Below, in pieces: positions 27,864 through 55,960 of a DNA stretch of 64,000 nt. The DNA is from Deltaproteobacteria bacterium (GTDB lineage: Bacteria > Desulfobacterota > Binatia > UBA9968). The stretch spans positions 131 to 64,130 of the forward strand of contig JACQUW010000326.1 in the NCBI GenBank assembly GCA_016210115.1, in the 5' to 3' direction. The notes below the pieces were generated by a model, which searched no databases, had not been told where the DNA came from, and saw only the letters and a list, made by a program, of their open reading frames with translations. Position 1 is the stretch's first letter. Each line of letters opens with the position of its first letter. The translations under genes were made by a program, and so were the position numbers.

Positions 27864-28400
27864 TCAGGATTTCTTTCCCGCCGCGGATGCTTCCAGAACC
27901 GAAAGCGCAATCGCCGGGTAGGCGCCGCACCGGCAAATATTGCCTGAAAGCCATTGGGCAATCTGCTCGCGCGTTGGCGAGGGGTTCTCCAAAAGAAGCG
28001 CCTTGGCTGCCATGATTTGCCCGGGCGTGCAGTAGCCGCACTGGGATCCGACGTTGCGGATGAACGCCTCTTGCAGCGGATCGAGTTTATCCCCTTCTGC
28101 GAGCCCTTCGATGGTGAGCACCGACTTCCCATGCGACTCAAAGGCCAGATAGCTGCACGAGCTCACCGCTCGATTGTCGACAAGAACCGTGCAAGCCCCA
28201 CATACCTCCGATTCACAAGACCGTTTGGTTCCCGTGAGCCTAAGGCGGTATCTTAGAAAATCGAGCAGCACTTCCTCGATCGGCACCTCTCCCCGCCACG
28301 GTTTTCCATTAACCGTGACCGAAAGCTCAAAAACCTGCTGCGTCTTGATGGCATCCAATTCCTTCACAGCTCCTCCATCGGCACTAAATTCGATTTTCAC
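27864..28400 (-). CDS. (2Fe-2S)-binding small subunit of a xanthine-dehydrogenase-family molybdoenzyme (S1)
   Basis: The plant-type cluster motif is SCESEVCGACTV..SC and the second cluster motif is CGYCTPG..CRCGAY. The start is uncertain: GTG 28400, or GTG 28367 with GGAGGAG upstream. Confidence 0.9.
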   Translation of the reverse strand: MKIEFSADGGAVKELDAIKTQQVFELSVTVNGKPWRGEVPIEEVLLDFLRYRLRLTGTKRSCESEVCGACTVLVDNRAVSSCSYLAFESHGKSVLTIEGLAEGDKLDPLQEAFIRNVGSQCGYCTPGQIMAAKALLLENPSPTREQIAQWLSGNICRCGAYPAIALSVLEASAAGKKS

Positions 28401-28418
28401 TCCCTGAGACGAACACGG

Positions 28419-29381
28419 CTATCGCCCGGCCTTTCTTGCGCCTTCAACAAACTGGGGATCGGTGAATCGGGACAGATTCATGGAGCGGATCTCATCTTCG
28501 CTTTTTCCCATCATCCGAAAAGCGGATTGCAACACCTTCACGTCCGGAGAAGGGTCCAATTGCAAGTATTGCTTCACGACCAGGTCGTAGGTTTTGTCCA
28601 GGAGATTGGACTCGTCGATCCGCGTGTACTTTTTGATGACCGCCGTGGTCTTTACGCGCTCCGCTTTCATGAACGAAATTGCGGCGACAAATCCCGCGGC
28701 GAACTTGTTCACCATAGCTGGTTTTTCCCGCAGCAGACGCTGCCGGGCGATGACCGCGTTCATGGGAAAGGCGATGTCCAGATTGGCAAAGTTGAGGAAT
28801 TCCTTGAACCCATATTCGATCGCCTTGAAGCTTGCCGGGTCGGCCAGGACGGCCGCATCGATGTGGCCGGTATGGATCGCCGCTAGTATTTCTCCGATTC
28901 CGCCAACCTGAATAATCTGGACCTGATTGGAAGGTATTTTCCATTGGCGCAGCGCATAGCGAAAAGCGAAGTCGTATAAGCCCCCGAATCGAGTGACGCC
29001 GATTTTTTTTCCCGCGAGATCCTGCGGGGTGCGAATATTCACTGAAGTCACAAGCGAGAAGGCGGGCTTCTTGATGGGGATGGCGATCACCCCGATCTCC
29101 GCTTTTTGCTCGATCGCGCTTAAGATGGCAGCGCCCCCCACCATCCCGAAAGCCACTTCACCCGAAAGGATCGCGGCCAAGCCGATGGGACCCGATCGGA
29201 TATAGGCAAGGTCTACATCCAGCCCCTGCCTCTCAAAAAAGCCCCGGTCCACGGCTACCCAGACAGGAGCCTGTGTTGCCGCCAGCGCAGTGTACGCGAC
29301 GTGGATTTTCTCGGCCAAAACGAGCGCCGGATTCGAAAGAATGATGAAAGCAATGAGCTTTAGAATTCCGTTGAATTTCAC
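28419..29381 (-). CDS. Periplasmic SBP, NMT1/SsuA/TauA-like
   Basis: GTG 29381 with GGGGTGG upstream gives the signal peptide VKFNGILKLIAFIILSNPALVLA. The body is paralogous to the SBPs at 41857, 44675 and 62779 (WVAVDRGFFERQGLDVDL..). The ORF extends to 29465. Confidence 0.8.
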   Translation of the reverse strand: MKFNGILKLIAFIILSNPALVLAEKIHVAYTALAATQAPVWVAVDRGFFERQGLDVDLAYIRSGPIGLAAILSGEVAFGMVGGAAILSAIEQKAEIGVIAIPIKKPAFSLVTSVNIRTPQDLAGKKIGVTRFGGLYDFAFRYALRQWKIPSNQVQIIQVGGIGEILAAIHTGHIDAAVLADPASFKAIEYGFKEFLNFANLDIAFPMNAVIARQRLLREKPAMVNKFAAGFVAAISFMKAERVKTTAVIKKYTRIDESNLLDKTYDLVVKQYLQLDPSPDVKVLQSAFRMMGKSEDEIRSMNLSRFTDPQFVEGARKAGR

Positions 29382-29468
29382 AAAACCACCCCGTTGAAAT
29401 TTTCGCTGCCAGCGGACAAACAAATTTGCAGTCCGGCCCGGTTTCTGACGATTCGATTGATACAAGGC

Positions 29469-31763
29469 TCAGATCTTACCCAGCGCCTGCAAGATCTTTT
29501 CCGCGGTAATCGGCAAAGATCTCACGCGAACCCCGATGGCGTCAAAAATCGCGTTGCCGATCGCCGGCGCAACCGTGACAATTGAAGTCTGAGACATCCC
29601 TTTCGAGCCAAACGGGCCCGGCCCGTCGCCCCTCTCCATCATGGACGAATAAAATGACCGCGGGAGATCGGCTATGACAGGCAACCGGTATTGAAAAGGA
29701 TCGCCGTTTTGCATCTGCCCCTCGCCATAGACGGTCTCTTCAAAGAGCGCGTGTCCTAACCCCATCACGGCCCCGCCGTCCATTTGTGCTTTGGCCGAAA
29801 GGTGATGCAGCGCCTTGCCCGCATCCGTGACAACCGAGAACCGGAGCACGCGCAACTCACCGGTCTCACAATCGACTTCAACTTCCGCGGCCCCGGCACT
29901 CGGGGCCCAGTGATCCATGCCGCTGAAAGCCGAATCTTTCTGCGTGGGGCGAGGCGCATGATGACCCACCGCTTGAATCACCGCATCTTCTCCTGACGCC
30001 CTCGCGACATCGCCGAAAGAGTAGCTCTCTTCGGCGTGCAACAGCCGCCCTCCGACTACTCGCCATTCTTCGGGATTTCCCCCCATTGTTCGACATGCGG
30101 TGAGAATCAGCTCTCGTTTGAGATTCTCGCACGTAATTTTTACGGCATTCCCCATCTGCATCGTTGTGCGTTGAGAATGCACGCCGATAAACGGCAGATC
30201 AACCGCCGTATCCGGCTGCCCAACCACGATCCGGCTCTGCGGAATTTCCAGCGACTTCGAGGCGATAATGCTGATGAGATTATGAACACCCTGGCCCAAA
30301 TCCGGAGCGTTGTGCTCAATCCTCACAACCCCGGAAGCATCCACGCTCGCCATGGCGGACGTCTTGGTGCCGCCCTGGGAGCCATGCCGGAGGCTAAGGG
30401 CCATCCCTTTCCCGCGCGCGACGCCGCGCCGGATTACCGGAGTCTTTTGTTCCAGCGACGAACGACCATCCCAACCCATTGCCGCGATGGCGCTCTCCAT
30501 CAGATCCAGGTAATCCGTGTCCATCAAAGGAGTTCCCTTGGCCACGAACTGGCCGCGCAGAAGAACGTTTTTTCTTCTGAATTCAGTCGGATCGATCCCC
30601 ATCTGCCGGGCTACGCTGTCAATGGCGCACTCTATTCCCCAGGTGGTTTGCACTTTGCCCGTTGCCCGGGTATGCCCCGCGGGCACTTTGTTCGTGTACG
30701 CGCAGCGGGCATGAATACTCACATGCGGAATGCGATAGCAACCCCAGGCCGAGATGACCGCGTTGTGGGTGGCGGTCGGCGCGCCGGTGGTATAAGCTCC
30801 CGTGTCCACGACGAGATCGACCTTCAAAGCCGCCAGCGTCCCGTCCGATTTCACGCCTATCTTTGCTTTGTAGACCATGGCATGGCGGGCATTCTGCCGG
30901 AAGCTAAGCTCCGCTGTGGGAATTAATCGTATCGGCCGGCCGATCTGGCGTGATAGAAACAACGTCGCGAGGATGGAGTTTGTCAGCGTTTTTGAGCCGA
31001 AGCCTCCTCCAACATAAGGAACCCGCACTCGAACGCGCCTGGGATCAACTCCAAAGATTTCCGCGATCTCTTCTGACTCGCGAAACGGAGAACTGGTGGG
31101 CGCCCAGAGGTCGATCTCATCATTCAGGAATCGGCCGAGACAACCGCCGACATTTTCCATGGGATGATGAAACATGGAAGGCGAACTATAAGTCTCTTCA
31201 AATATGCGGTCGGCTTGCTTGAATCCCTCTTCCACATCGCCCCACTCTAGCTTGTCCTCAAAAAGAAGATTGCTGCCTTTGCTCTCGTGAAGAACAGGCG
31301 CTCCGGGAGACAAAGCCTCGGTGGCATCAAAAACAGCCGGCAACACCTCGTACTCGACTTCGATCAATTCGATCGCCCGCCGGGCGGTGCGCAGATCCTC
31401 TGCGGCCACCAGGGCGACGAGCTCGCCGTCAAACCGGACCTTATCCACTGCGATAAAGCTCTCATCACTCATGGGTTTCCACGAAAGATAAGCCGTTGGG
31501 GCGGGAACCGGCAGGGCCGGGTTAAAGCCGTTCAAGTGCTCCCGATCCAGGATACCGACCACGCCCGGAAGCGCTGCGGCCCTGGATGAATCTATGGAGA
31601 GAATCCGGGCGTGCGAATACGGGCTGATCAGGGGAGCAGCGAAGGCCGTGCCCGGCAGATCCGGCAGGTCCTCAATATACTTCGCCTGTCCCGTCACCTT
31701 GTCCTTCGCATCAATACGCGGCTGCTCTTGCCAGCCGTGCACGGTCTCAGAAGTTTTGGCCAT
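29469..31763 (-). CDS. Molybdopterin-binding large subunit of a xanthine-dehydrogenase-family enzyme (L1), atypical active site
   Basis: The N-terminus is KVTGQAKYIEDLP, with VPYVGGGFGSK and the C-terminus GPGPFGSKGMSQTS..APAIGNAI. The position that is Glu in L2 (GMGE) and L3 (GIAE) is Gln here. Confidence 0.9.
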   Translation of the reverse strand: MAKTSETVHGWQEQPRIDAKDKVTGQAKYIEDLPDLPGTAFAAPLISPYSHARILSIDSSRAAALPGVVGILDREHLNGFNPALPVPAPTAYLSWKPMSDESFIAVDKVRFDGELVALVAAEDLRTARRAIELIEVEYEVLPAVFDATEALSPGAPVLHESKGSNLLFEDKLEWGDVEEGFKQADRIFEETYSSPSMFHHPMENVGGCLGRFLNDEIDLWAPTSSPFRESEEIAEIFGVDPRRVRVRVPYVGGGFGSKTLTNSILATLFLSRQIGRPIRLIPTAELSFRQNARHAMVYKAKIGVKSDGTLAALKVDLVVDTGAYTTGAPTATHNAVISAWGCYRIPHVSIHARCAYTNKVPAGHTRATGKVQTTWGIECAIDSVARQMGIDPTEFRRKNVLLRGQFVAKGTPLMDTDYLDLMESAIAAMGWDGRSSLEQKTPVIRRGVARGKGMALSLRHGSQGGTKTSAMASVDASGVVRIEHNAPDLGQGVHNLISIIASKSLEIPQSRIVVGQPDTAVDLPFIGVHSQRTTMQMGNAVKITCENLKRELILTACRTMGGNPEEWRVVGGRLLHAEESYSFGDVARASGEDAVIQAVGHHAPRPTQKDSAFSGMDHWAPSAGAAEVEVDCETGELRVLRFSVVTDAGKALHHLSAKAQMDGGAVMGLGHALFEETVYGEGQMQNGDPFQYRLPVIADLPRSFYSSMMERGDGPGPFGSKGMSQTSIVTVAPAIGNAIFDAIGVRVRSLPITAEKILQALGKI

Positions 31764-31787
31764 ACTGACGCTCTCTATCGCGACTCC

Positions 31788-33248
31788 TTACTCTTTGGGA
31801 CTGACAAGAAATCCCCACTTCTTCCTCGCTCTCGCCATTCTCTCAGGATCTGTCTTGACCGCTTGCGGAAAAGAATGAATTCTCTCATACGGTTTGCAGG
31901 CATCCAAAACCAATCGGGAGCTGTGAACAGCGTTCGGCAAAACCCCGGTATCGAGAGGACTGCTGAAAGAGCGACGGATGACTTGAGCCGACCGCTCAGG
32001 GTCGCTTCGGGTGCAGATGGCCCACACCACTTCCTCCAGATCGGCCGGATCGATATCATCATCGACGACAACGACATATCTCCCGTTTCTAATCCCCACC
32101 CCGCACTGCGCGGCCACGATTCCGACCTGCGTTGCATGCCCCGGATATTTCTGGCGCACCGAGATCACGGAAAAAAGGCTCCCACCGCCTGCCTCGTGGA
32201 GCCATACGCCTTTGATTCCTGTCAGACCGGCGCTCTCTAAATAGTTCCACAAAAGAGCCGAACGGAGTAGTCCCTGCGTATGCGCTTGTGAAGAGGGTGG
32301 CTTGATCGGAGGCCGCCCAAAAATAATCGGTTCATCGCGATACAAAATGGACTTGATTCGGATAACCGGCTGGGGCGATCTCTCACTGCCGTAGTAGCCG
32401 GTCCACTCGCCGAAAGGTCCTTCGGCCAAAAGATCGCCTTCCGCCGATTCGCCCGCGATGACGCATTCAGCGCTCGCAGGAACCGGTAGGCCGGTCATGG
32501 GCTCCTCGATGGTCTCGACAGGCTCGCCTTTTATGCCGCCGGCGTAATCCAACTCACACGTGCCGGCGGGCAGATTGAGCGACGATACGATAAAAACGAG
32601 CGGATCACATCCCAAAACGACGGCGACAGGACAGGGCTTTCCCTGCTTCCACCACTGCTCCCGGTGGAGTCGCCCGTGTCTGCCGGGTTCGGCATAAAAG
32701 CCGAGAGCATCCGGGCCATGAAGCATCGCCCTGTAAGTGCCGACATTGACCCACCCATCCTCGGGAGACCGGGTAATGACGCAGCAGCCGGTTCCAATAT
32801 AGGGACCGCCATCGTGCAGGTTCCATGTGGGAGCAGGGAATCTGCGAATGTCGATGTCTTTTCCCATGACCCGGTTTTTCGTGACGGGACTACTCTCCAC
32901 CTTCACATGGGGGATCAACGAAATGGTTTTGACTTTCTCCTTCCAAAGACGAACAAAATGGACTTCATCTTCCGGAAGCGGCAGGCGCAACGACAGGGAC
33001 AGCCTCCTCCGGGATCCGAGAGCGTTTAGAAGAACGCGATATCCACCCTCTACTCCCTTCAGCCGATCGCAGAGAACCGCCGGGTTATTCCGCGAGTGGC
33101 ACACCAGCGAAGCAAGCTCTCCGATCTCGAGATCGGGTTCCACCCCATCCACACAGCGCAGCTCGCCGGCTTTTTCGACCAAGGACAGCCATTCGCGCAA
33201 GTCCTTGTAAGATTCAGCCGCGCTTATCGAGGCTTCGGTCCCGCTCAT
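31788..33248 (-). CDS. UbiD-family (prenylated-FMN-dependent) decarboxylase, paralog 1
   Basis: EGPFGEWTGYYGS is present, with a typical UbiD length and N-terminus (DLREWLSLVEKAGELRCV). The start overlaps the GntR stop (ATGA). Confidence 0.9.
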   Translation of the reverse strand: MSGTEASISAAESYKDLREWLSLVEKAGELRCVDGVEPDLEIGELASLVCHSRNNPAVLCDRLKGVEGGYRVLLNALGSRRRLSLSLRLPLPEDEVHFVRLWKEKVKTISLIPHVKVESSPVTKNRVMGKDIDIRRFPAPTWNLHDGGPYIGTGCCVITRSPEDGWVNVGTYRAMLHGPDALGFYAEPGRHGRLHREQWWKQGKPCPVAVVLGCDPLVFIVSSLNLPAGTCELDYAGGIKGEPVETIEEPMTGLPVPASAECVIAGESAEGDLLAEGPFGEWTGYYGSERSPQPVIRIKSILYRDEPIIFGRPPIKPPSSQAHTQGLLRSALLWNYLESAGLTGIKGVWLHEAGGGSLFSVISVRQKYPGHATQVGIVAAQCGVGIRNGRYVVVVDDDIDPADLEEVVWAICTRSDPERSAQVIRRSFSSPLDTGVLPNAVHSSRLVLDACKPYERIHSFPQAVKTDPERMARARKKWGFLVSPKE

Positions 33249-33937
33249 CCTGCCTTCCTTCTAAGATAGAGGATCAGGTTCTGCCTCCCCTCTTGAATAT
33301 GCTGCCGGATCAATTTTCTCGCGCCGGCAACGTTCTGTTTCATAATGCAGTCCAGTATCATTTCATGTTCTTTGTAAACTTTTTTCCCTCTTTGCGGAAA
33401 ACCCTCCAGGCTGCGCTTGAGGATCAATCGTTCGAAGATCTTCTCCAGAGCGTTTTTGATAAATCGATTGTGACAGGCCTCTGCTATTCTCAGATGAAAC
33501 TCTTGATCGGCCCGCAATCTTTCCATCGAAATCGGCTGCTGGACCGCCCGATGATATTTTATTGTGATCTCTTTTAGATCTCTTATGAGCTCCTCGTCCT
33601 TTATAGAGGAAGCTTTCTCCACCGTGTAGGCCTCAATAATCTCCCGAAACGAATATAATTCATCCGCCTCATCGACGGTGATTTCATTGAGGTAGTAGCC
33701 TTTTCTCGCAACGCTCCTGACGTAACCTTCCTGAACCAGCCGGTTGATCGCCTCTCGTACGGGCGTCGTGCTCACGCCCAGCTTTTCGCTGAGATATTCA
33801 TGTTGCAGTTTCTGTCCTGGAACGATCTGCTGCGTAAAGATCAAATCTTTGATCTTGAAATAAACCTGGTCCGTCAGGCTGAGCGAATAAGGCGACCAGC
33901 CATCTTCTTTGAATGCGGGGTAAAGAGTTTGGTCCAT
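33245..33937 (-). CDS. GntR-family transcriptional regulator (FadR/FCD subfamily)
   Basis: The winged HTH is LQHEYLSEKLGVSTTPVREAINRLVQEGYV, with a helical C-terminal FCD-like domain. ATG 33937 with GAAGG upstream is preferred over the long ORF start 34129, which would overlap the upstream gene. Confidence 0.85.
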   Translation of the reverse strand: MDQTLYPAFKEDGWSPYSLSLTDQVYFKIKDLIFTQQIVPGQKLQHEYLSEKLGVSTTPVREAINRLVQEGYVRSVARKGYYLNEITVDEADELYSFREIIEAYTVEKASSIKDEELIRDLKEITIKYHRAVQQPISMERLRADQEFHLRIAEACHNRFIKNALEKIFERLILKRSLEGFPQRGKKVYKEHEMILDCIMKQNVAGARKLIRQHIQEGRQNLILYLRRKAG

Positions 33938-33959
33938 TATGATTTTACCTTCAGCGCGC

Positions 33960-34931
33960 TCAGGTAAGATACCCGTTTTGCCGGTAATATCTCCTGGCGC
34001 CGGCGTGCAGCGGAATTCCAAGCGCCGCGTCCTCCGTATCTCGACACAGCTTTTCCATGTCCAAAGAGCCGCTGTCGACGGGTATGAAATCTCTCCGCCT
34101 GTCGATCGCCTCGCAAATGGAATAGGCAACGCCCTCGTCCAGCCATTTATGCGTGATCAGGGGCCAGCCGCTGAAATCGATCGTCCTCACGTCTCTCGGG
34201 AGACTCTTAAAACGGGTTTTCGGTATGGCGGCGCCTTTAAAACCATACCTTTCCATCTCCCGTATGATCTTGGGTTCAAGCTCTACAAGTTCATAGCCGT
34301 TCGCGAGCGCCTCGTCTAACCATTTGGATATTCCTTCATCGAAAACCGCCCCTACTTGTCTGTTCAGGATGCTTTGCATGCGCCGGGGCGACGAGGGACG
34401 ATCGCATTCCTCTATCTCTCCGCCCCACTGCTTGATCCTTGCCGGAGAAAGCCCATAGAGAGAAAGAATCTTTGACACAGCATAGTAGGTCGCGTTATCA
34501 ACCCCGGCCAATCGAGTCGACACCCTCAGAGGAATCTTCCTGGCCGCGATCTCATAAAGAGACCTGATTTTCAAATCTCTGGAGACAGCAAAGGCAATCC
34601 TGTCCCAGGAGGGAAAACACGCCAGCGCCCGCAGAGGCAGTTTCTGCTTATAAATTCCCTTCCCCCGATACGCCATCGTAGCGATCGCCGACGGATTCAC
34701 GTAGGCGATATCCACGCGCCTCCTCGCGACCTCCAGCGGCGCCCGCATCCCACCCATGAGCCGCCCATTAACGGCCAGGCTCAAGCTCAGAGGCCTGTTG
34801 GCGCGACTGTCTTTTGAAGTGAAGGAGATCTTTAACTCGTCGCCCAAACTTGACATTTGTCTGGCGTACAACTCGGCGGCGATTTCGAGAGCTCCTTTAA
34901 CCCTGATCATGTTCGCTCTTAGTTTAACCAT
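33960..34931 (-). CDS. TAXI/NMT1-like SBP-fold protein without signal peptide
   Basis: Its internal pattern and the C-terminal LHAGARRYYRQNGYL resemble TAXI-type TRAP solute receptors. The N-terminus MVKLRANMIRVKGALEIAAEL is not hydrophobic. Confidence 0.6.
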   Translation of the reverse strand: MVKLRANMIRVKGALEIAAELYARQMSSLGDELKISFTSKDSRANRPLSLSLAVNGRLMGGMRAPLEVARRRVDIAYVNPSAIATMAYRGKGIYKQKLPLRALACFPSWDRIAFAVSRDLKIRSLYEIAARKIPLRVSTRLAGVDNATYYAVSKILSLYGLSPARIKQWGGEIEECDRPSSPRRMQSILNRQVGAVFDEGISKWLDEALANGYELVELEPKIIREMERYGFKGAAIPKTRFKSLPRDVRTIDFSGWPLITHKWLDEGVAYSICEAIDRRRDFIPVDSGSLDMEKLCRDTEDAALGIPLHAGARRYYRQNGYLT

Positions 34932-34935: not shown

Positions 34936-35523
34936 CTACGAGATCTTAATGGAATTCGCGTTCGCTACCCTGACGTTAAAATTGTAGGCGGACGACCTGA
35001 ACTGGCTGAGAGCAAAGACTTGCCCTTCGGGCCGGATGGCGTGGATGCAATCCTCCGGCACGACGACAAAGTAGTTCCTGATGCTGAACCCGATGACTGC
35101 ATGGTAAACACAGTTGCTCGATCCTATCCCCGTCACGACGATGGTGTCGCGGCAGGGCTGTAAGTCCAGATTCTGCAATACCGCCTCCATCCGGGTTCTG
35201 TAGAAGCAATCATGCGATGATTTTTGGACGACGGTTTCCGTCGGGAGAGGCTTCAGTTCTTCAACGAACTCCACGCCCGGATTGCCCTCGAGAAGATGAA
35301 CCTTCCTTCCAAAGACGGTAAATTCCGGATGGTCCACAGCGCGCACCGACTGCACGTGAATGATTTTTCCATCCGCTTCGCGAAACCGGTTGAGAAGTGA
35401 CTGTATCTTGTGAATGACCGGCCGAACCCCCGGCCCGTGCTTCTCACAACCTTCCTCCTGCATATCGACGATGACCAGTCCGAAGGAGCCCTTCGGAAGG
35501 TTCATGCGTGTTTCATTATTCAT
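34936..35523 (-). CDS. Isochorismatase-family cysteine hydrolase (amidase-type)
   Basis: The D-K-C triad context is FGLVIVDMQ, VVQKSSHD and VTGIGSSNCV. The start overlaps the upstream stop (ATGA). Confidence 0.85.
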   Translation of the reverse strand: MNNETRMNLPKGSFGLVIVDMQEEGCEKHGPGVRPVIHKIQSLLNRFREADGKIIHVQSVRAVDHPEFTVFGRKVHLLEGNPGVEFVEELKPLPTETVVQKSSHDCFYRTRMEAVLQNLDLQPCRDTIVVTGIGSSNCVYHAVIGFSIRNYFVVVPEDCIHAIRPEGQVFALSQFRSSAYNFNVRVANANSIKIS

Positions 35524-38500
35524 AAACTCTCTCCGATCCCGTCCCGTCTCCGGCGGAGAACGCCCCGACGTTCTTCTGTGGCTTCCAAATCGACCTGCTG
35601 GCCACCGTCAGTCAACGCGACTCCGTAAATCGCATAGGCCGCCTCGCGCGACACCAGTCCGTCTCTGATGTCTTTCAGTACCGCGTCAGGCGCCCTCTCT
35701 AGGGGGTCCCCGTATCCACCGCCCATGGCGACTCGCATGTAGAGGACGTCGTTCTTAGTTAATTCGAAATCACAACACCCCAGTTCTCTCGCCCGGCCGT
35801 TGATCTCAGCCATATTCACCGGCGCCTTATTCGCGGCAATCAAGCGCTCCACGTTGGTATCTTCCCACAAAGTCAGCACGCTCGGAGCGCCCGCCCAACC
35901 GCCAAAGATCCCCTGTCCGGAGTTGCCCGATCCGGTTACGCCGTAAGCAACGCCCGTGATCTTTCCTTCCGGAGCCTTGTGCAAGATATGCGCTGTTTCC
36001 GCTCCCGCGCCGCCGCGAAATTTTCCCGCGCCACCGCCGTCCACCACATGGCGCCGAAACAGGTACAGGATGGGAAAGTTGAGCTCGAACCATTCGACAT
36101 TGGGACAGCTCATAAAATTCCCGCCCCCAGAGTCTATGCCGTCCGCGAAGGAGCGCGCCCCGGTGCCGTCGAGCGCGCCATGCGCCATATTGAACACGCA
36201 GTACTTGCCGGCCTGATTGAGGCCCGCATGTTTTGCGTTGCGATGGCCTGCGTTCACCGCCATCACCTCCTTTTTCCACTTTTCGCTCCTCGCGAGCATT
36301 TGCATCAATGCAGACCTCGCGAGGTATCGAACGGTGTGGCCGGAAGACGTCGTGTTCAAAGAGACCGGGCCGGGGTAGCGGACATTGACGAGCGTTCCTT
36401 CCGGAGCCGCGATATCCAAAGGCCGCAAGAGCCCGTGATTTTTCGGAATATCGTATGCCAGAACAGGCAAGAGCGCCGCGAAGCACCAGCCAAAGGTGGC
36501 GTGGCGGGCGAGATTGACCCCTCGTTTTGCCTGTCTGTCCGTGCCTTCGAAGTCGAACAGCAAATGGTCGCCTTGTTTGTGGAGTGTCAACGTGACATTC
36601 AACGGTTCGTCCGCCTCGACCACGCTGCGCTCGGTCCACGAGCCGTCCGGCGCCTCTCTGATCCGTCCTCTGAGAACAATTTCCGAGTAGCGGATCATTT
36701 CGCTCGCCACGGCATCCAGAAGTTCGGCTCCGTAACGGCCGTACATCTCTTGCATCCTCGATCTCGCGACGTTATTTGCGGCGATTTCACACTTGAGATC
36801 GAGTCCGACCATCACGGGATGGCGGGTCATATGGATGATCGTCTCGAAGACATCTCTCCTAAGCGTTCCTTTCTCCACCAGTTTAAGGCCGGGTATTCTG
36901 ATTCCCTCGTGAAAAATTTCCGTTGCGCCCGGTGAATCGCCGCCGGGAGACATCGCCCCGATATCCGTGACATGCACGAATGTAGCGCTCCACGCAACGA
37001 GGCGGTCTCCAACATGGATAGGTGATATCATGTAGACGTCGCTCTGATGGATGGCCGCAAGGTAAGGATCATTGAGGAGAAACAGATCGTCAGGAAAAAT
37101 TTCTCCATCAAATCGTTCGATAATTTTTTTTACGGCAAAGCCGGCGCAGGCGACATGCTGCCCCATCGTGCTGCCCCCGGCCAAAATGTCCCCGTTGGCC
37201 CGGTAAAGCGCGGCCATGTAGTCGCGCTGTTGCGTCGTATTGACGGTGCCGCCCACGCGCTCGAGCGTTGTCGCCGTTTCATTGGCGATCTGATGGAGCC
37301 TGTGGGAAATGACTTCGAACGTGATCGGATCGATATCTTTAAGGAAGGAATCCATGCCTGCCTCATAAGCGCCTACCGATATCCGCACGTTTCGAAATTC
37401 GTCGAGAGTTGCGCAGTCCGGCGGGTTGATGACGATCGTGGTCACGGGAGTTTCAATCACCGCCGGCCCCGCGATTTCCGCTCCCGGCGTCAAGCGCCCG
37501 AAGTCGTAAATCGCCGTCTGGACAAAATCTCTATATTCCTCAAAGTATACGGGCCTGTTCGTTTTGAGCGCATCGCGCGCCGCCGCGCCCGTCGATCGTT
37601 GCCTGCAAATCGCGGGCTTTTTTAATCTGCCGGCCGCAGCCAGCCGGAAATTCATGATCTCCTTGCCCGCCTCGCGATAGGCCGAGCCCTTGCCATAAAG
37701 CATCTCATAGGCCGTGTCAAAGCGCTCGTACAGTTCCTCCAGGTTCTGTTCTGTCAGCTCTGCACCTCCTGGATCGAGACTCACGTTCACCTCGTGAACC
37801 TGGTGACGATAGCGCATATCCACGCTTCGAGAGATCGTGATCTCTTCATTACGGAAACCGGCGGCCGTAAGATCACTCAACGCCTTGCCGATAAGACCGG
37901 AAAAATTCTCATTGACCTTTCTCACGTCGGCCGGAACGAGAAGGTGATCGGATTTACCGTATTGATAGACGACGTCCGATGTGACAAGGCCACTGGCTCC
38001 GTGCACGGAAGCCGTCAAGGGAATGATCACCCGCAGGATTCCGAGTTCCGCGGCGTATCGACTTGCGTGAACGGGCCCGGCGCCGCCATAAGCAAACAGG
38101 ACATATTTTCTCGGATCACGGCCTTTCTCGACGGTGGCCTTCCGAATGAGATCGCTCATGTGCGAATTAGCGATCAGATAAATACCGCGCGCGGCCTCGA
38201 CTTCGTTTAGCCCCAGCGGCCTGGCAATTTTCTCCTTGAGAATTTCGACCGCTCTGCTCTTATCCAACCGTATCTTACCGCCCAGGAAGTAAGCTTCATT
38301 GAGATACCCCAGGATCAGAGCAGCGTCTGAAACGGTCGGCTCTGTTCCTCCCCGGCCATAACAGACGGGTCCCGGCTTGGCGCCCGCCCCTTGAGGGCCG
38401 ACCTTCAGGAGCCGCCCCTCCGGATCAATCCACGCGATGCTCCCCCCGCCGGCGCCGATGGACTCGATCCAAATTTTCGTGGATAAGATATTGTGCCTGG

Positions 38501-39467
38501 CGATAACGGGTTTGTAGTCCTTCTCGATCATTCCATCCGTCACCAGACTGACCTTGAAAGTTGTCCCTCCCATGTCGGTCGCAAGGATATTGGGCTCTCC
38601 GAGAAGCTGCCCCAGAAACTGGCTTCCCACGACCCCTGCGGCAGGGCCCGATTCGATGCTGCCGACGGCGTTTTTGCAGCTTGCGTCGATGCCCAAAACG
38701 CCCCCATAGGCCTGCATCACCAGCGGCTCCGCGCGAAGTCCCTTGTTTTCCAACAGCCCTTTGAGATTGCGCAGGTATACGGAAATTTTCGGACCGATAT
38801 ACGCGTTTATCACGGTGGTGGCCGTGCGCTCGTACTCACCAAGATAAGGAGCGACCTCGCTCGACAAGCTGACGAAAAGAGACGGATGATCCTCTTTGAT
38901 CCTGTCTCCTACCAGCTTTTCGTGGGAAGCATTGGCGATCGACCACAGGAGAGACACGGCAACGGACTCCACTCGCTTTGCCAGGAGCCTTTCGATAGCT
39001 TCGCGGATCTCATCGGTACTGAGGCGGATCAACACGGTCCCCTGGTGATCCACCCGTTCGGTAATCTCTTCGATAAGGGATTTCGGCACGATCGGCTCGG
39101 GCTTGCACAACGCCGACAAGTGGGCCGCCTCGGTCTCGCTGAGTCCATCCCAGGTCTTGCCGCGCATCATCAGAATGATGTCCCCAAACCCTCTAGTTGT
39201 GACGAGGCCGGTCTTGGCGCCGGCGCGGGTAATAATCGTATTGTCCCCGACAGTACAGGCGTGAAAAAAAATGAGCGTCGATTGAACCAGCTCGTTCTCG
39301 CTGCGCAATCCAAGAATCCTGGCCGCTTCGCGAACGGCATCGATGACCCCAACCGAAAAGTCGTCCGGCGTTGAAAGGGCCTTCGCGATCGTTTGATTCC
39401 CCGCTTCATCGAGAACCACGCAATCGGTAAAAGTCCCGCCGATATCAACGCCGACAATATAATTCAT
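35520..39467 (-). CDS. Fused hydantoinase/oxoprolinase A (HyuA) and B (HyuB), ATP-dependent lactam/ketone-activating enzyme family
   Basis: The N-terminus VGVDIGGTFTDCVV starts the HyuA domain, and DPITFEVISHRLHQIANE starts the HyuB domain mid-protein. The product is 1315 aa from ATG 39467. The ORF extension to GTG 39557 is encoded by a REP-like hairpin and was rejected. Confidence 0.9.
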   Translation of the reverse strand: MNYIVGVDIGGTFTDCVVLDEAGNQTIAKALSTPDDFSVGVIDAVREAARILGLRSENELVQSTLIFFHACTVGDNTIITRAGAKTGLVTTRGFGDIILMMRGKTWDGLSETEAAHLSALCKPEPIVPKSLIEEITERVDHQGTVLIRLSTDEIREAIERLLAKRVESVAVSLLWSIANASHEKLVGDRIKEDHPSLFVSLSSEVAPYLGEYERTATTVINAYIGPKISVYLRNLKGLLENKGLRAEPLVMQAYGGVLGIDASCKNAVGSIESGPAAGVVGSQFLGQLLGEPNILATDMGGTTFKVSLVTDGMIEKDYKPVIARHNILSTKIWIESIGAGGGSIAWIDPEGRLLKVGPQGAGAKPGPVCYGRGGTEPTVSDAALILGYLNEAYFLGGKIRLDKSRAVEILKEKIARPLGLNEVEAARGIYLIANSHMSDLIRKATVEKGRDPRKYVLFAYGGAGPVHASRYAAELGILRVIIPLTASVHGASGLVTSDVVYQYGKSDHLLVPADVRKVNENFSGLIGKALSDLTAAGFRNEEITISRSVDMRYRHQVHEVNVSLDPGGAELTEQNLEELYERFDTAYEMLYGKGSAYREAGKEIMNFRLAAAGRLKKPAICRQRSTGAAARDALKTNRPVYFEEYRDFVQTAIYDFGRLTPGAEIAGPAVIETPVTTIVINPPDCATLDEFRNVRISVGAYEAGMDSFLKDIDPITFEVISHRLHQIANETATTLERVGGTVNTTQQRDYMAALYRANGDILAGGSTMGQHVACAGFAVKKIIERFDGEIFPDDLFLLNDPYLAAIHQSDVYMISPIHVGDRLVAWSATFVHVTDIGAMSPGGDSPGATEIFHEGIRIPGLKLVEKGTLRRDVFETIIHMTRHPVMVGLDLKCEIAANNVARSRMQEMYGRYGAELLDAVASEMIRYSEIVLRGRIREAPDGSWTERSVVEADEPLNVTLTLHKQGDHLLFDFEGTDRQAKRGVNLARHATFGWCFAALLPVLAYDIPKNHGLLRPLDIAAPEGTLVNVRYPGPVSLNTTSSGHTVRYLARSALMQMLARSEKWKKEVMAVNAGHRNAKHAGLNQAGKYCVFNMAHGALDGTGARSFADGIDSGGGNFMSCPNVEWFELNFPILYLFRRHVVDGGGAGKFRGGAGAETAHILHKAPEGKITGVAYGVTGSGNSGQGIFGGWAGAPSVLTLWEDTNVERLIAANKAPVNMAEINGRARELGCCDFELTKNDVLYMRVAMGGGYGDPLERAPDAVLKDIRDGLVSREAAYAIYGVALTDGGQQVDLEATEERRGVLRRRRDGIGESL

Positions 39468-39492
39468 AGAATCATCTGCCCCTTTGACTCCG

Positions 39493-39527
39493 AGATCCCC
39501 TCTTTGAAAAAGAGGCGATAGGGGATT
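39493..39527. repeat. REP-like palindromic element
   Basis: GAGATCCCC-TCTTTGAAAAAGAGG-CGATA-GGGGATTTTC has an inner 7-bp stem CCTCTTT/AAAGAGG and an outer stem ATCCCC/GGGGAT. Confidence 0.5.
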
Positions 39528-39553
39528 TTCCGAGCTCCGCTGCGATTCATACG

Positions 39554-40633
39554 TCACTTATAGTACTTCGCCATCTGGTTCTCGACCCTCGATTTCGCGC
39601 AGGCCTCCTCGAACATCCGGCGCACGACTGGATCTTCGTCTTCATATTCGATTTGCAGTCCGCCTGTCTTGACGTCCGCATCCATCTCCCCGGGGTCGGA
39701 TGTCATGCCGTAGTATTTCTTGCTTCCCCATCGCAGTGCGAGATACCGCGCCGGCTCGGCTCCGGCGTTAAAATGCTGGTGAAACCAGTTGTTGGGAGGA
39801 ACAATCAAGCTTCCCGGGCCCCAATCGAACCGTTGATTGGGTTGACCCTGCGGCCACATGAGCGAGTACCCGCGGCCGCTGAGGATGATCACGTGAGCTC
39901 CGGGACCGTGGTAATGGGCTTTCTTGTAAGTTCCCACCGGAAACTGAGCCACGTGACCGCACAAGGTATTTTGCGAAATCTCCAGGCGGACCTGCGAGCC
40001 ACCGGCCCCTCTCTCCTTCCATTCGATCAGGTCCATGTTTCTTACATCCGCAACAAAATTCGTCTCCCACATCCGGCCCTCATACCAGAGTCCGGGACGC
40101 GAGAAATAATCCTCTTCCGAGCTGTAGCGATCTTTGAAAACAAAGTCGCAGTTGAAGATAAAATCCAAATTGTGAATCAGGTTGATCATGATCGGCGCGC
40201 TGGTCACAGCGATATAGCGGGCCGGCTCGCTGCCGCTCCCGTTGAAATGCTGGTGCCATGCGTTCAGCGGCGCGGAAAAGAGCGCGCCCTCCTGCCATTC
40301 GAACGTGCGCTTCGGCCCGCCCTGATTCCAGACGGTAGTGGCGCCCTTCCCGCTGATGACATAGATCAGCTCTTCGAAGAAATGCTTTTGCGGCTTGAGA
40401 CCCTGACCCGGAGCGATCTCACAGACGTAGGCGTCGTTCGTCTCGCCGGCGCCTTCTAGACAGATGCGCGCCGCAAGCCCGCCTTTGCGGCCCCACGGCT
40501 GCAGCGGAACCTTTTTGAGGTCCTCCATGAAAAATCCTTCGATCAAGGGGATTCCCTCAAGCTCCAGCCACTTCCGATAGGAGCTCTTCTTCTCGGGAAG
40601 CGGCGGCTTTTTAGCAAAGTTGGATTCGGACAT
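39554..40633 (-). CDS. Bicupin protein, gentisate 1,2-dioxygenase-like
   Basis: There are two cupin modules, each ending W(F)HQHFN. The C-terminal module has HYH..H..WFHQH, while the N-terminal one reads QKH. ATG 40633 with GAGGGGG upstream is preferred over the ORF start 40825. Confidence 0.8.
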   Translation of the reverse strand: MSESNFAKKPPLPEKKSSYRKWLELEGIPLIEGFFMEDLKKVPLQPWGRKGGLAARICLEGAGETNDAYVCEIAPGQGLKPQKHFFEELIYVISGKGATTVWNQGGPKRTFEWQEGALFSAPLNAWHQHFNGSGSEPARYIAVTSAPIMINLIHNLDFIFNCDFVFKDRYSSEEDYFSRPGLWYEGRMWETNFVADVRNMDLIEWKERGAGGSQVRLEISQNTLCGHVAQFPVGTYKKAHYHGPGAHVIILSGRGYSLMWPQGQPNQRFDWGPGSLIVPPNNWFHQHFNAGAEPARYLALRWGSKKYYGMTSDPGEMDADVKTGGLQIEYEDEDPVVRRMFEEACAKSRVENQMAKYYK

Positions 40634-40721
40634 TTTTCCCCCTCTTAATGCTGCCGTCGGTCGGGCGCCACGGAATGATCCTGCTATGTCGTCTCGACGG
40701 AGACCGTCTCGTTGAATATGC

Positions 40722-41783
40722 CTATTTTTGCAGGCCGAATAGCGATCGGAAGCGATCCATATGCCCTTTGATGTTCTCTCCTTGCTCCAGCCGGAGCGGC
40801 GTAAGCTTGAGGCGACGCCTATCAAGCTTGGGCGTGAGAGGTTTCAGGTCTGATCTGGAAGGTATCCGCTGCAGCCTCTGAAGCACCTGCTGCCCCTCAC
40901 TCGACAGGACATAATCGATAAGAAGCTTTGCAGCGTTCGGATGTTGCGGTTTTGCCCCCAGACCAATCACCCCGGTCGAGGAAATGATCGGATCCATGGT
41001 GGAGACCCACTCGATGGGGGCTCCTTGCGTCTTCATGAACTCGACGCGATGGACATAAGCGAACGCCATGGGCATTTCGCCCGCGACGACGAGCTGAGAA
41101 AGAAGCGTGTGCCCTTTGCGAAACTGAATATCCTGGCCGGCAAGCCTTTGGAAGTAAGCGAGAGCCTTCTCAGCGCCCCGCCTGTTTTCGAGTCCCAGAT
41201 ACAATTCATAGTCTGCGGGGTCCATTCCGATGTTGCCCTTCCACCTCGGATGGAGAAGATCGTCCCAATCTTTGGGAGCGTCGAGCTCCGAAATGAGTCG
41301 TGTGTTATAGGCGAGCACCGTGATCCTGTCGTCGGTGGACGTCCACAGCCCGTTTTCATCTTTCCAGCCCCGCCCGTAAGCCTTTCGCTCGGGCGAATCG
41401 TACGACTGCAAAAGTCCCATTTTGATCGCCGGATACATATCGACCCCGGTCGCTCTGATGACGTCGTACCCGTAATTTCCAGATCGCGCCTCCGCAAACA
41501 CTCTGTTTAGAAACTTCTCAGTGCTCAACCTGAGTACTTCAACCCTGACAAACGGGTATCTATTTTGGAAATGTTTTGCCAGATCATTGGCTTCGGTGAC
41601 GGTGCTGTACCAAACAACTTTACCCTCGCGCCTTGCCCCCTCTTCCCACGGATTTGAGGCAAACACAGATTGCGAGAAGAAGATTGTCTCAGGCAGAAAA
41701 ATATAAACGAAAAAAAGAACAAGAGCCCCTCGACCGAAAATCGCCGCCTCTGACCTCATCCGTCTTCTGAAAATACAATGCAT
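40722..41783 (-). CDS. Periplasmic SBP, family 1 (iron(III)/polyamine-type, SBP_bac_6-like)
   Basis: It has a hydrophobic N-terminus. The segment EGKVVWYSTVTEANDLAKHFQNRYPFVRVEVLRLST is typical of FbpA/PotD-like binding proteins. Confidence 0.7.
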   Translation of the reverse strand: MHCIFRRRMRSEAAIFGRGALVLFFVYIFLPETIFFSQSVFASNPWEEGARREGKVVWYSTVTEANDLAKHFQNRYPFVRVEVLRLSTEKFLNRVFAEARSGNYGYDVIRATGVDMYPAIKMGLLQSYDSPERKAYGRGWKDENGLWTSTDDRITVLAYNTRLISELDAPKDWDDLLHPRWKGNIGMDPADYELYLGLENRRGAEKALAYFQRLAGQDIQFRKGHTLLSQLVVAGEMPMAFAYVHRVEFMKTQGAPIEWVSTMDPIISSTGVIGLGAKPQHPNAAKLLIDYVLSSEGQQVLQRLQRIPSRSDLKPLTPKLDRRRLKLTPLRLEQGENIKGHMDRFRSLFGLQK

Positions 41784-48934: not shown

Positions 48935-49413
48935 GATTTCCTCATCATTTCGGCCGCGCGCAAAATGGATTCAATGATCATCTGATATCCGGTGCAGCGA
49001 CAGATGTTCGCATCCATGTACTCCTGCACTTCTTCCCAACTCGGGTCCGGTTTTTCGTCCAGCAGAGCCTTGGCCAGGAGAATCATCCCGGGAGTGCAAA
49101 AGCCACACTGAAAACCGCCATGCTCGATGAAGGCTTCCTGAAGCGGATGCAATCGATTGCCTTGAGCCAGACCCTCGATGGTCGTCACATCTTTCCCGTC
49201 GATCTCGAAGGCAAACAAGGAGCATGAGCTCATCGCCTTGCCGTCGATCAAGACGGTGCACGAGCCGCAGATTTCTATATCGCAGGACTTTTTGGTTCCT
49301 GTGAGACCCAGCCGGTCACGGATAAAATCGATCAATAACTCATTGGTCTTTGCTTCCGCCTGGCATTCTCTTCCATTCAGGCGAAAGCGAACAGAAACGA
49401 GAGATTCACCCAC
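48916..49413 (-). CDS. (2Fe-2S)-binding small subunit (S2)
   Basis: SCDIEICGSCTV..SC and CGFCTPG..CRCTGY are present. The start is GTG. Confidence 0.92.
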   Translation of the reverse strand: MGESLVSVRFRLNGRECQAEAKTNELLIDFIRDRLGLTGTKKSCDIEICGSCTVLIDGKAMSSCSLFAFEIDGKDVTTIEGLAQGNRLHPLQEAFIEHGGFQCGFCTPGMILLAKALLDEKPDPSWEEVQEYMDANICRCTGYQMIIESILRAAEMMRKSCQERP

Positions 49414-50284
49414 GCGTTCGCTCCTTTCTTTGGCACAACTGCCTCAAACCCCGGCCCACCAGGACCTTTACAATATGCCGCTTGTACTCTACGGAGCCCC
49501 AGAGGTCCTCCAAAGGATCAGACAAAAGGGTAGCCTTTTCCCCGGCCTCCATGGCCGTATCAAAAATCTCGTCGACCCCTTTTCCTTTGAGATCTTCCTC
49601 CACCTCCCTGGCCCGTACCGGTTTCGGGCCCACACAGCCTAACGCGATTCTTATCTCATCGGCGACCGAGCCGTTCCCACGCACCAGGACCGCAGCGGTA
49701 ACCGTAGGCCTCTCTCCCGGGCAGAAGCGAAGATAGGCGCCGCGAAAGTTGTCCGGAAGTTTTGGAATTTGCACTTCGGTCAAGATCTCATCCGGATCGA
49801 GAGCGGTTTTATAATAGTCCACGAAGAAATCATCCACGCTGAGGCTTCTTTCCCTTTTTGCATTCCGGGCCTTGATGCTGGCGCCGTAAGCCAGGAGGAG
49901 AGTTCCCGGATCAGCTTTGGGCTCCGCGAAACAAAGATTTGCGGCCAGCGTGCCGGCGTTTCGAATCCTCACGTTGGCCAACTGGCGCTCCATGTCTCTC
50001 ACAAGCGGAAAATGCTCCTGGACAATAGAGGACAGCTCCAGGGCGCGATGCGTCACCAGGGCGCCGATGCGCAATTTCTTATCCGCAGGGTCGTAGTCCA
50101 GAAAATCCAGCCCGGGAATTTTTTTTATATCGACCAGGTGACCGTAACTCGCCAAGCCCATCTTCAGTAGCAAGATGAGCTCGCTTCCACCGGCAAGGAT
50201 TTTGGCCTCCCCGCCATAGCGATCCAGCAGAGACGCGGCAGACTCAACAGAATCAGGCCTGTGCAGAGTAAAAGGTAGAATCAA
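49406..50284 (-). CDS. FAD-binding medium subunit (M2, CoxM/XdhB-like)
   Basis: FTLHRPDSVESAASLL..AKILAGGSELILLLK and NVRIRNAGTLAANL are present. An apparent TTG start has AAGGGGGG upstream. Confidence 0.88.
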   Translation of the reverse strand: MILPFTLHRPDSVESAASLLDRYGGEAKILAGGSELILLLKMGLASYGHLVDIKKIPGLDFLDYDPADKKLRIGALVTHRALELSSIVQEHFPLVRDMERQLANVRIRNAGTLAANLCFAEPKADPGTLLLAYGASIKARNAKRERSLSVDDFFVDYYKTALDPDEILTEVQIPKLPDNFRGAYLRFCPGERPTVTAAVLVRGNGSVADEIRIALGCVGPKPVRAREVEEDLKGKGVDEIFDTAMEAGEKATLLSDPLEDLWGSVEYKRHIVKVLVGRGLRQLCQRKERTRG

Positions 50285-51390: not shown

Positions 51391-51470
51391 TGACTTTTCA
51401 CTTTTGACTATTGACCATTGGCCATTGACTATTTACTTTTCACGTTTCACGTTTCACTTTTCACTTCTTA
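51391..51470. repeat. Tandem-word spacer (TGACCATTG and TTTCAC words) overlapping the 3' end of S3
   Basis: TGACTTTTCACTTTTGACTATTGACCATTGGCCATTGACTATTTACTTTTCACGTTTCACGTTTCACTTTTCACTTCTTACTTC. The last codons of S3 (REVRSEK-stop) are encoded by the repeat. Confidence 0.7.
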
Positions 51471-51954
51471 CTTCCCTTAATTGCTTCGCGGCAGCAATTA
51501 CGGATTCAACGATCTTCTTATAACCGGTGCAGCGGCACAGGTTTCCCATCAGTTCTTCCCGCACGTCCTCCGGAGTAGGGTCCGGGTTGATCTCCAACAA
51601 CTCTACAGCAGTGAGAACCATCCCTGGAGTGCAATAACCACACTGGAGTCCCCAGTTATTGAGAAAGGCCTGTTGGACAGGGTGAAGCCTTCCATCCTTT
51701 TGCAGCCCCTCGATCGTTAAGAGCCGGCGGCCATCGATTCTAGCGGCAAGCATGAGGCACGCGCTCACGCTTTTGCCGTCCATCAGCACCGTACATGAGC
51801 CGCAGACTCCGATATCGCAGCTCCGCTTGGTGCCCGTGAGGTGCAGGTCGTCGCGCAGAACATCGATGAGCAGTCGATAGATCGGGATCTCCAACCGGTA
51901 CTCCTCGCCATTGACCCAAAAATGGAGCGGCCGCCGCTCAATCATGGAGTTCAC
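51454..51954 (-). CDS. (2Fe-2S)-binding small subunit (S3)
   Basis: SCDIGVCGSCTV..AC and CGYCTPG..CRCTGY are present. The start is GTG 51954 or ATG 51945. Confidence 0.92.
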   Translation of the reverse strand: MNSMIERRPLHFWVNGEEYRLEIPIYRLLIDVLRDDLHLTGTKRSCDIGVCGSCTVLMDGKSVSACLMLAARIDGRRLLTIEGLQKDGRLHPVQQAFLNNWGLQCGYCTPGMVLTAVELLEINPDPTPEDVREELMGNLCRCTGYKKIVESVIAAAKQLREVRSEK

Positions 51955-55945: not shown

Positions 55946-55960
55946 GGCCGAATCTCACTT

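Follow-up and report, generated by a model that had tools for sequence, protein, structure and literature searches.

A gene pair for a putative molybdenum (Mo) enzyme from the xanthine oxidase (XO) family, in which glutamine stands at the place of the catalytic glutamate, was found in a 64,000-nucleotide stretch (hereafter the window) of contig JACQUW010000326.1 from a Deltaproteobacteria bacterium (assembly GCA_016210115.1). The large subunit L1 and the small iron-sulfur subunit S1 lie in one operon with a GntR regulator, the UbiD-type decarboxylase UbiD1 and a solute-binding protein (SBP). For the reading that we prefer we see about an even chance: L1/S1 would be an intact, selected member of an uncharacterised and mechanistically divergent clade of the XO family, it would act together with UbiD1, and the gene of its flavin adenine dinucleotide (FAD) subunit would have been lost from the operon. 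The clade with Gln has been seen so far in metagenome-assembled genomes (MAGs) only, mostly in those of Candidatus Binatia.

Glutamine at the catalytic position of L1

L1 (29469-31763, minus strand) was a Mo-binding large subunit of 764 aa with the Pfam domains Ald_Xan_dh_C (1e-22), MoCoBD_1 (3e-63) and MoCoBD_2 (6e-50). The AlphaFold model of L1 had a pLDDT of 66 and was poor or disordered in the cofactor loops. With this model the top Foldseek match was the alpha subunit of 4-hydroxybenzoyl-CoA reductase (HBCR, 1rm6; TM score 0.75, 30-31% identity), and TM scores of 0.70-0.75 were obtained for 1rm6, 8uem and 5y6q. By sequence and predicted fold, L1 is an XO-family Mo subunit.

The codon CAG at 29589-29591 (minus strand) encodes Gln725, which stands where the family has its catalytic Glu, a residue that we take by family equivalence to be Glu1261 of bovine XO. 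The C-terminal segments of the three large subunits in the window are GPFGSKGMSQTS (L1), GPYGAKGMGEGG (L2) and GPFGAKGIAEPG (L3), with Glu in L2 and L3 at the position of Gln725. In phmmer alignments, GPFGSKGMSQTS stood residue for residue opposite GPFGAKEASEGM of HBCR (1rm6_A), which paired Gln725 with Glu726, and opposite VPGGIKGMGESA of quinoline 2-oxidoreductase (1t3q_B), which paired it with Glu743. Gln725 was also opposite a Glu of 6-hydroxypseudooxynicotine dehydrogenase (7dqx_A) and of mycobacterial CoxL (8uem_A). When L1 and the 150 best representatives of 50%-identity clusters were aligned with MAFFT, this column held Glu in 133 of the 151 sequences. A misaligned Gln was ruled out by the four pairwise alignments and the 151-sequence alignment, and the alignment by eye of the initial annotation, which had put Gln at the catalytic position, was not shifted. 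Its reading of the L1 loop PAGHTRATGKVQ against PAGAFRGFGATQ of L2 was correct as well.

A word-indexed search gave 120 L1 homologue clusters (67-100% identity), and Gln725 was invariant in 120 of 120. An exhaustive search of the representatives gave the full-length members P0122, P0123 and P0124 (48-52% identity, 841-698 bits), beyond which no representative exceeded 38% identity or 503 bits, and the bit scores dropped from 754 to 503 where the Gln members end. In a tree of 144 full-length representatives, L1 (P0001), P0122, P0124 and P0123, all with Gln, were monophyletic with P0125, which has Asn (support 1.0). Residues other than Glu were found at the catalytic column in 12 of the 144, five of them being the L1 clade. 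The scattered ones outside it, with the alignments taken as they stand, were P0176 (Gln), P0217 (Asn), P0142 (Asp), P0227 (Met), P0212 (Ser), P0243 (Ala) and P0232 (Arg), so loss of the Glu seems to be recurrent in uncharacterised XO-family sequence space.

All related loci came from MAGs, eight labelled Candidatus Binatia, two Verrucomicrobiota and the remaining ones Deltaproteobacteria, Syntrophobacteraceae or Thermodesulfobacteriota, so that a characterised member of the clade is unlikely. No equivalog of NCBIfam claims L1, and neither natural Gln variants nor a characterised clade member were found in the literature searched, which lacked most subscription papers.

A remodelled active site

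The exchange of the Glu was accompanied by further substitutions. Ser224 (codon 31092-31094, minus strand) occupies the position of the Gln that contacts the Mo=O group, presumably equivalent to Gln767 of XO. A Gln in contact with the apical Mo=O is common in the family, not universal. This column held Gln in 115 of the 151 representatives and His in 7dqx, while in the L1 family it held Ser, Thr and Ala (83, 24 and 12, respectively). The change was stepwise within the clade: P0125 and P0123 had Gln, P0122 and P0124 had Asn, and the L1 family had Ser, Thr or Ala.

The segment PAGHTRATGKVQ (codons 361-372, 30648-30683, minus strand) substitutes for the canonical A-F-R-G-F-G loop, and in the L1 family His-Thr-Arg-Ala-Thr-Gly-Lys stands for Ala-Phe-Arg-Gly-Phe-Gly. 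His364, Arg366, Ala367, Thr368, Gly369, Lys370 and Gln372 were invariant in the L1 family. A systematic comparison revealed at least 11 positions that were invariant in the L1 family and conserved otherwise in Glu-type relatives, namely (Glu-type residue in brackets) His364 (Ala), Ala367 (Gly), Asn495 (Thr), Leu523 (Pro), Phe525 (Asp), Gln531 (Ser), Trp567 (Leu), His653 (Asn), Ser720 (Ala), Ser724 (Gly) and Gln725 (Glu). Several of the changes in L1 fall in motifs that in this family form the lining of the pocket for cofactor and substrate, namely the A-F-R-G-F-G loop, the G-x-Y-S-S-R loop and the I-N-P segment. In addition, a family-specific insertion was present at 611-618.

The cofactor-contact motifs were kept and were invariant or nearly so in the L1 family, including G252-G253-G254-F255-G256-x-K258, R366 and G490-Q491-G492. 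Since the substitutions are frozen and these motifs are retained, L1 would have an altered but functional active site instead of a dead one. The catalytic Glu has been permanently replaced by Gln, and in the L1 family its neighbours were first remodelled and then frozen (Ser/Thr/Ala224, His364-Lys370, Gln531, His653).

Two known types were rejected for L1. Ala367 sits at the presumed position of Cys388 in the loop of carbon monoxide dehydrogenase (CODH), hence no Cu site of the Cu-CODH type is expected. The periplasmic PaoABC type was rejected by the absence of a twin-arginine translocation (Tat) motif on inspection by eye and by scores of the PaoA and PaoC models far below cutoff.

Loss of the FAD subunit gene and rearrangement of the operon

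The gene order was compared in 27 related loci from metagenomes and species-representative MAGs, of which 22, including the window, were informative on the genes after the Gln-bearing large subunit. This subunit is called L(Q) below, the FAD subunit M, the iron-sulfur subunit S and a canonical Glu-type large subunit Lb. The order L(Q)-M-S, with a FAD_binding_5/CO_deh_flav_C gene, was found in 15 of the 22. In each of the window's seven closest relatives (73-81% identity) the order was UbiD-L(Q)-M-S, mostly with an NMT1-type SBP gene behind it, and P0123, an outlying member of the Gln clade (48%), also had L-M-S. The genes of the window were orthologous to those of the relatives' operons, with identities of 74-84% for S1, 72-80% for UbiD1, 68% for the SBP and 73% for GntR. 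The Gln clade is ancestrally an ordinary L-M-S (Mo / FAD / 2x[2Fe-2S]) enzyme.

No orthologue or remnant of M was detected in the 64-kb window by tblastn with three orthologous M proteins, which matched only M2 (49406-50284, 40%) and M3 (51938-52810, 36%). In the tree of L(Q) the window adjoined L004 (81%) and L002 (76%), both with M, so the loss of M is the window's own. M was also absent within about 7 kb either side in six loci of another subclade (L006, L007, L009, L010, L011, L019), and because L013, L014 and L021, which are nested among the M-less loci, retain it, M was lost at least twice overall. An SBP gene between L and S was seen in the window alone among the loci compared. As the relatives have UbiD-L-M-S(-SBP) and the deeper Gln members L-M-S, the missing M and the interposed SBP gene represent a lineage-specific rearrangement. 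The tblastn search and the contigs described below agreed with the initial annotation that the unit has no FAD medium-subunit gene and that an SBP gene lies between L1 and S1, while its view of an enzyme two-subunit and SBP-split by nature was not supported, since 15 of the 22 loci, the seven closest relatives among them, carry M.

In 11 loci the gene directly upstream of L(Q) encoded Lb (with GMGEGG and AFRGFG motifs, 62-71% identical to L2 of the window). The loci named with Lb are L002 (6235-8544), L005-L007, L009-L011, L013, L014 and L019-L021. In these loci Lb and L(Q) together have one S and at most one M, an arrangement that may mean shared subunits or an L(Glu)/L(Gln) heteromer. No Lb accompanies L1 in the window.

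To check the junctions, Logan contigs were used from three runs (X1, X2 and X3), all of them groundwater metagenomes of a single study. The L1/SBP junction was spanned in X1 (28596-31252), X2 (29210-29481) and X3 (29318-29484), and the SBP/S1 junction in X2 (28102-28955) and X3 (28353-28559), with at most one differing base. At 28754, within the SBP gene, the window had C and the X1 and X2 contigs had T, a strain variant or consensus difference with no evident consequence. A misassembly of the order L1-SBP-S1 was ruled out by these independently assembled contigs. They exclude a binning or scaffolding artefact; the runs may include the source sample of the window, so their independence is partial.

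L, S and UbiD had ratios of nonsynonymous to synonymous substitution (dN/dS) of 0.08-0.10 against L004 and L002 (0.08 for L1), which are approximate with dS near saturation. L1 departed from the family at two of 259 near-invariant columns, the family median being 1 and the mean 1.7. No meaningful systematic change was found in S of the M-less loci compared with the M-containing ones. L1 and S1 show no sign of decay.

Proposed mechanism and alternative explanations

The catalytic Glu has been described as essential and conserved in the XO family (review PMC13653126). A divergent mechanism, as proposed in the initial annotation, is a reasonable inference for L1, with Gln being invariant in a deep clade that has other conserved active-site changes. 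L1 would still bind the Mo cofactor, as its motifs are kept. Since Gln cannot serve as a general base, the proton of the Mo-OH group would have to be handled in another way, and our preferred guess is that the invariant His364 or the carboxylate of the substrate itself has taken over as base; the latter option would also explain the removal of a negative charge from the pocket. The electrons would leave via S1. Their acceptor would be an FAD subunit supplied in trans, which could be M2, M3 or the product of a gene elsewhere, or a partner of another kind. Supply in trans is favoured because Lb in the relatives lacks an M and S of its own and because S was unchanged in the M-less loci.

L1/S1 may act beside UbiD1 on an aromatic or N-heteroaromatic (poly)carboxylate, the NMT1-type SBP could deliver the carboxylate substrate and the FCD-type GntR could sense it. 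The L1 unit would be one module of a 36-kb decarboxylase, Mo-hydroxylase and ring-cleavage island for an oxygen-dependent route. In its logic such a route would be comparable with those for lumazine, nicotinate and picolinate. Lumazine is a documented case of an N-heterocycle on which a Mo hydroxylase and a UbiD decarboxylase are used jointly (PMC12391406), as is sensing of pyridine dicarboxylate by a GntR/FadR regulator in the case of DipR (PMC11472048).

Several points weigh against this proposal. The model of L1, from which the geometry of His364 and Gln725 would have to be judged, is moderate and poorest in the cofactor loops. Engineered variants of Rhodobacter capsulatus xanthine dehydrogenase (XDH) with Gln (also Ala, Asp or Arg) for the Glu are reportedly inactive, and catalysis retained in L1 therefore would need a real mechanistic substitute. 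Linkage to UbiD was confined to the subclade of the window, and half of the loci have a canonical L upstream instead. The substrate, the reaction direction and the proton acceptor are guesses for the whole clade.

The Gln clade is uncharacterised and probably works differently from the Glu-type XO family. Tentatively, and with somewhat less than even confidence, it may even be regarded as a distinct catalytic class without base-assisted attack of the Mo-OH group, using a relocated His base, assistance by the substrate carboxylate or another reaction, which would have arisen repeatedly and would be widespread in soil bacteria. Several independent non-Glu lineages in the representative tree suggest for such a class that this chemistry arose more than once, and the electron-transfer module would be interchangeable because the FAD subunit was lost repeatedly without harm.

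A conserved natural Gln clade with a co-evolved second sphere is a natural experiment, in which either the base function moved or the chemistry changed. The annotations "xanthine dehydrogenase family protein" and "CO/xanthine dehydrogenase Mo-binding subunit" when assigned automatically, mask a functionally different group, one that uncultured soil and groundwater Binatia commonly carry. The recurrent loss of the Glu makes the single case less surprising and the general question weightier, and the repeated loss of the FAD subunit gene bears on the modularity of electron-transfer chains in Mo enzymes.

A serious rival to supply in trans, although an unlikely one, is a truly FAD-less two-subunit L(Q)S enzyme, which would have arisen independently in the window and the Lb-L(Q)-S subclade and whose [2Fe-2S] clusters would pass electrons directly to a ferredoxin, a cytochrome or a quinone-linked partner. 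It would agree with the repeated loss of M from the operon next to intact and conserved L and S, and with the six loci devoid of M on both sides. FAD-less enzymes of the XO family exist, such as the aldehyde oxidoreductase of D. gigas (1SIJ/1VLB) and isoquinoline oxidoreductase of the IorAB type, which like the window operon combine a Mo subunit with a 2x[2Fe-2S] protein and have no flavoprotein. These enzymes keep the catalytic Glu, and 1sij was among the phmmer hits of L1. They are FAD-less as families, unlike the L1 family, which had L-M-S ancestrally and lost M in some lineages. Lumazine clusters also contain IOR-like two-subunit enzymes or a Mo subunit alone (PMC12391406). However, the freed docking surface would predict a systematic change in S of the M-less loci, which was not seen, L paralogues sharing M and S already occur in the relatives' clusters, and the window has two other M genes and no linked gene for an alternative acceptor.

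Quite improbable is a reductive dehydroxylase that works in the direction of HBCR and takes a hydroxyl off the ring of an acid, either phenolic or hydroxy-N-heteroaromatic, with UbiD1 serving as the (de)carboxylase in a phenol-type pathway. HBCR of Thauera aromatica (HcrCAB; 1RM6/1SB3; TIGR03194) gave the best sequence match to L1 (E=5e-97, full length) and the best profile (427 bits) in addition to the best fold, both have a three-domain Mo subunit and a partner with two [2Fe-2S] clusters, and UbiD1 scored best on the models of phenylphosphate carboxylase beta and VdcC. But the HBCR model was also the top model for the canonical L2 and L3, so the resemblance of L1 is generic, and the score of L1 was the lowest of the three (531 and 647 bits for the others) and far below the cutoff of 994.55. 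HBCR differs from L1 in having Glu726 and the Gln of the TTQ motif, and from the Gln clade in that M of the relatives (290-299 aa, 2-4 scattered Cys) lacks the [4Fe-4S] loop insertion and no CoA-ligase context was seen, none of the scanned ORFs encoding a CoA ligase. A bicupin dioxygenase is linked as well, and it implies that the route is aerobic. Membership of L1 in the HBCR family was rejected by the score, the absence of Glu, the M loop and the context. The initial annotation had suggested that the enzyme could run reductively, for which the Gln lends no support: the reductive dehydroxylases HBCR (Glu726) and UcdO (Glu741, PMC11760930) retain the Glu, so Gln alone is no sign of reverse operation.

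L(Q) might also be a non-catalytic pseudoenzyme that pairs with a Glu-type L (Lb or L2) in an (LMS)2 dimer and serves as scaffold or in specificity or regulation, which we regard as very unlikely. The 11 loci where Lb and L(Q) are encoded side by side, Lb upstream, and share a single S and no more than one M would suit such a role, and an inactive paralogue partner is known in the lumazine pathway (DHLI alpha, PMC12391406). On the other side, many loci (L001, L004, L008, L012, L015, L016, L018) have L(Q)-M-S on its own, L1 has no adjacent Glu-type L in the window, and the substituted active-site residues are invariant, not drifting, with the cofactor motifs kept. That L1/S1 is a decaying remnant, non-functional after the loss of the FAD subunit and merely undegraded yet, is hardly credible. 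It would fit the loss of M and the odd gene order, which none of the seven closest relatives of the window shares. Against it, no reading frame is broken, the two changed positions of 259 are typical for the family, all Fe-S Cys are present and dN/dS is 0.08, albeit averaged over the whole divergence.

Relation to known systems

The large subunits of canonical XDH, quinoline 2-oxidoreductase and CODH (1JRO, 1T3Q, 1N5W, 8UEM) share with L1 the fold, the Pfam architecture, GGGFG, the Arg of the A-x-R-G loop and GQG. Unlike L1, all of them have Glu for Gln725, mostly Gln for Ser224, and Phe or Tyr for Thr365 and Thr368.

The pyridine-carboxylate pathways, namely those for nicotinate (NicAB/NicC/NicX/NicF) and picolinate (PicA-G) and the DipR-regulated dipicolinate cluster, follow the logic of a Mo hydroxylase, a decarboxylase, a ring-cleavage dioxygenase, an isochorismatase-type amidase and a GntR/FadR regulator. 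Each of these element types was present in the island of the window, a likeness at the level of element types. The window differs from the pyridine-carboxylate pathways in that the dioxygenase is a bicupin and the decarboxylases are of the UbiD, aldolase-II and Amidohydro_2 types. Dipicolinate degradation by Alcaligenes needs no Mo cofactor (PMC11472048).

The lumazine system of Cupriavidus sp. LA-1 (lumazine dehydrogenase LuDH, the Amidohydro_2-type 6,7-dihydroxylumazine (DHL) isomerase and the UbiD-type xanthine-8-carboxylate decarboxylase XCDC) brings together a three-subunit XO-family hydroxylase and a UbiD decarboxylase dependent on prenylated flavin mononucleotide (prFMN) for an N-heterocycle, and the subunit make-up of XOR in lumazine clusters varies by lineage, including two-subunit and Mo-subunit-only forms (PMC12391406). 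LuDH is unlike L1 an active NAD+-dependent hydroxylase with no loss of the Glu reported (PMC12391406), as compared by description only. The lumazine cluster resembles the UbiD3/Amidohydro_2/L3-M3-S3 unit of the window more than the L1 unit.

Other genes of the operon

The gene content and order GntR-UbiD-L1-SBP-S1 were as first described, with domains assigned by Pfam and NCBIfam. The GntR/FCD regulator (ORF 33245-34129, minus strand, probable ATG at 33937, gene 33245-33937) had the Pfam domains GntR (7.9e-16) and FCD (1.3e-21). It was of the FadR subfamily type and shared 73% identity with the GntR that neighbours the orthologous operon of L002. An ATGA overlap joins its stop with the start of UbiD1, and the junction was read directly in the sequence, in line with the translational coupling noted before.

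UbiD1 (31788-33248, minus strand; Pfam UbiD_N/UbiD/UbiD_C) was predicted as a prFMN-dependent (de)carboxylase. Its profile scores were 272 bits for TIGR00148 (cutoff 244.85), 276 bits for phenyl_P_beta and 261 bits for VdcC, and it appears to belong to the hydroxyarylic-acid or phenylphosphate-carboxylase-like branch of UbiD decarboxylases. It had the acid-base Glu motif GPFGEWTGYY. In L002 and L004 an orthologue of UbiD1 (72-80% identity) took the place directly upstream of L(Q), which in L026, L027 and the P0007 loci was occupied by Pfam-annotated UbiD genes. No UbiX gene was found among the window ORFs scanned with Pfam, a scan that did not cover the whole window.

The SBP (ORF 28419-29465, minus strand) was of the NMT1/SsuA type (NitT/TauT-like; NMT1 4e-21, SsuA_fam 1e-23). 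Its probable start is GTG at 29381, preceded by GGGGTGG, and its N-terminus was signal-peptide-like, as was that of the 68%-identical orthologue placed after S in L002. The SBP between L1 and S1 is predicted to be exported. The SBP/S1 junction and the gap from the L1 stop to the SBP start, about 85 nt, were read directly.

S1 (27864-28400, minus strand) was a small subunit of 178 aa with Pfam Fer2 and Fer2_2 and two [2Fe-2S] motifs, C-x4-C-x2-C-x11-C and C-x2-C...C-x-C, in which all eight of the eight Cys were present. S of the orthologous L-M-S operons, 74-84% identical to S1, had 50-57% identity to S2 of the window. No twin-arginine (RR) motif was observed by eye in the N-termini of L1 or S1, as the initial annotation had thought. 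L1/S1 is presumably cytoplasmic because Tat and Sec signals are absent. A promoter and terminator scan returned fewer sites than in shuffled sequence.

The surrounding catabolic island

The five operon genes come at the low-coordinate end of a catabolic array that spans 36 kb and is co-oriented on the minus strand. S1 is the last gene of the island, since a methyltransferase and then the housekeeping GTPases Era and Der lie downstream. Three UbiD, three L, two M and three S genes were counted in the window. A class-II-aldolase-type protein resembled 3,4-dihydroxyphthalate decarboxylase (117 bits, below cutoff), and an Amidohydro_2 protein, a bicupin, an isochorismatase-family hydrolase, an M20 deacylase, several binding proteins and amidases were also revealed. 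The make-up of the island is suggestive of an undescribed route that handles polycarboxylates, aromatic or N-heteroaromatic.

UbiD3 (56752-58119), the Amidohydro_2 gene (55109-55945) and L3-M3-S3 (55179-51454) lie together at 51454-58119 on the minus strand, and the M20 deacylase gene (58116-59588) adjoins them. They are the enzyme-type trio of lumazine cluster I of Cupriavidus sp. LA-1 (PMC12391406), which is a likeness of types. An ORF of 344 aa at 50346-51380 had no Pfam or NCBIfam match.

Hydantoinase/oxoprolinase A and B were fused in one ORF of 1345 aa (35520-39557, minus strand), and the gene of the isochorismatase-family hydrolase (34936-35523) follows. This pair recalls the N-methylhydantoinase and N-carbamoylsarcosine amidase pair. 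Hydantoinase genes were also linked to L(Q) in the P0007 loci, where hydantoinase/oxoprolinase A and B were separate neighbours with lengths of 693 aa and some 612 aa.

No permease or ABC ATPase was detected among the scanned ORFs of the array (27864-63942). Genes with a binding-protein fold in this region were of the NMT1 type (28419, 41857, 44675 and 62779), TAXI-like (33960) and of family 1 (40722). A bicupin with 72-75% identity to that of the window was linked to L(Q) in many relatives and, after S, accompanied the L(Q) unit more constantly than any other neighbour. The bicupin ORF of the window (39554-40825, TTG start) overlaps the upstream family-1 SBP gene (40722-41783) by about 100 nt, so the true start of the bicupin is probably further downstream.

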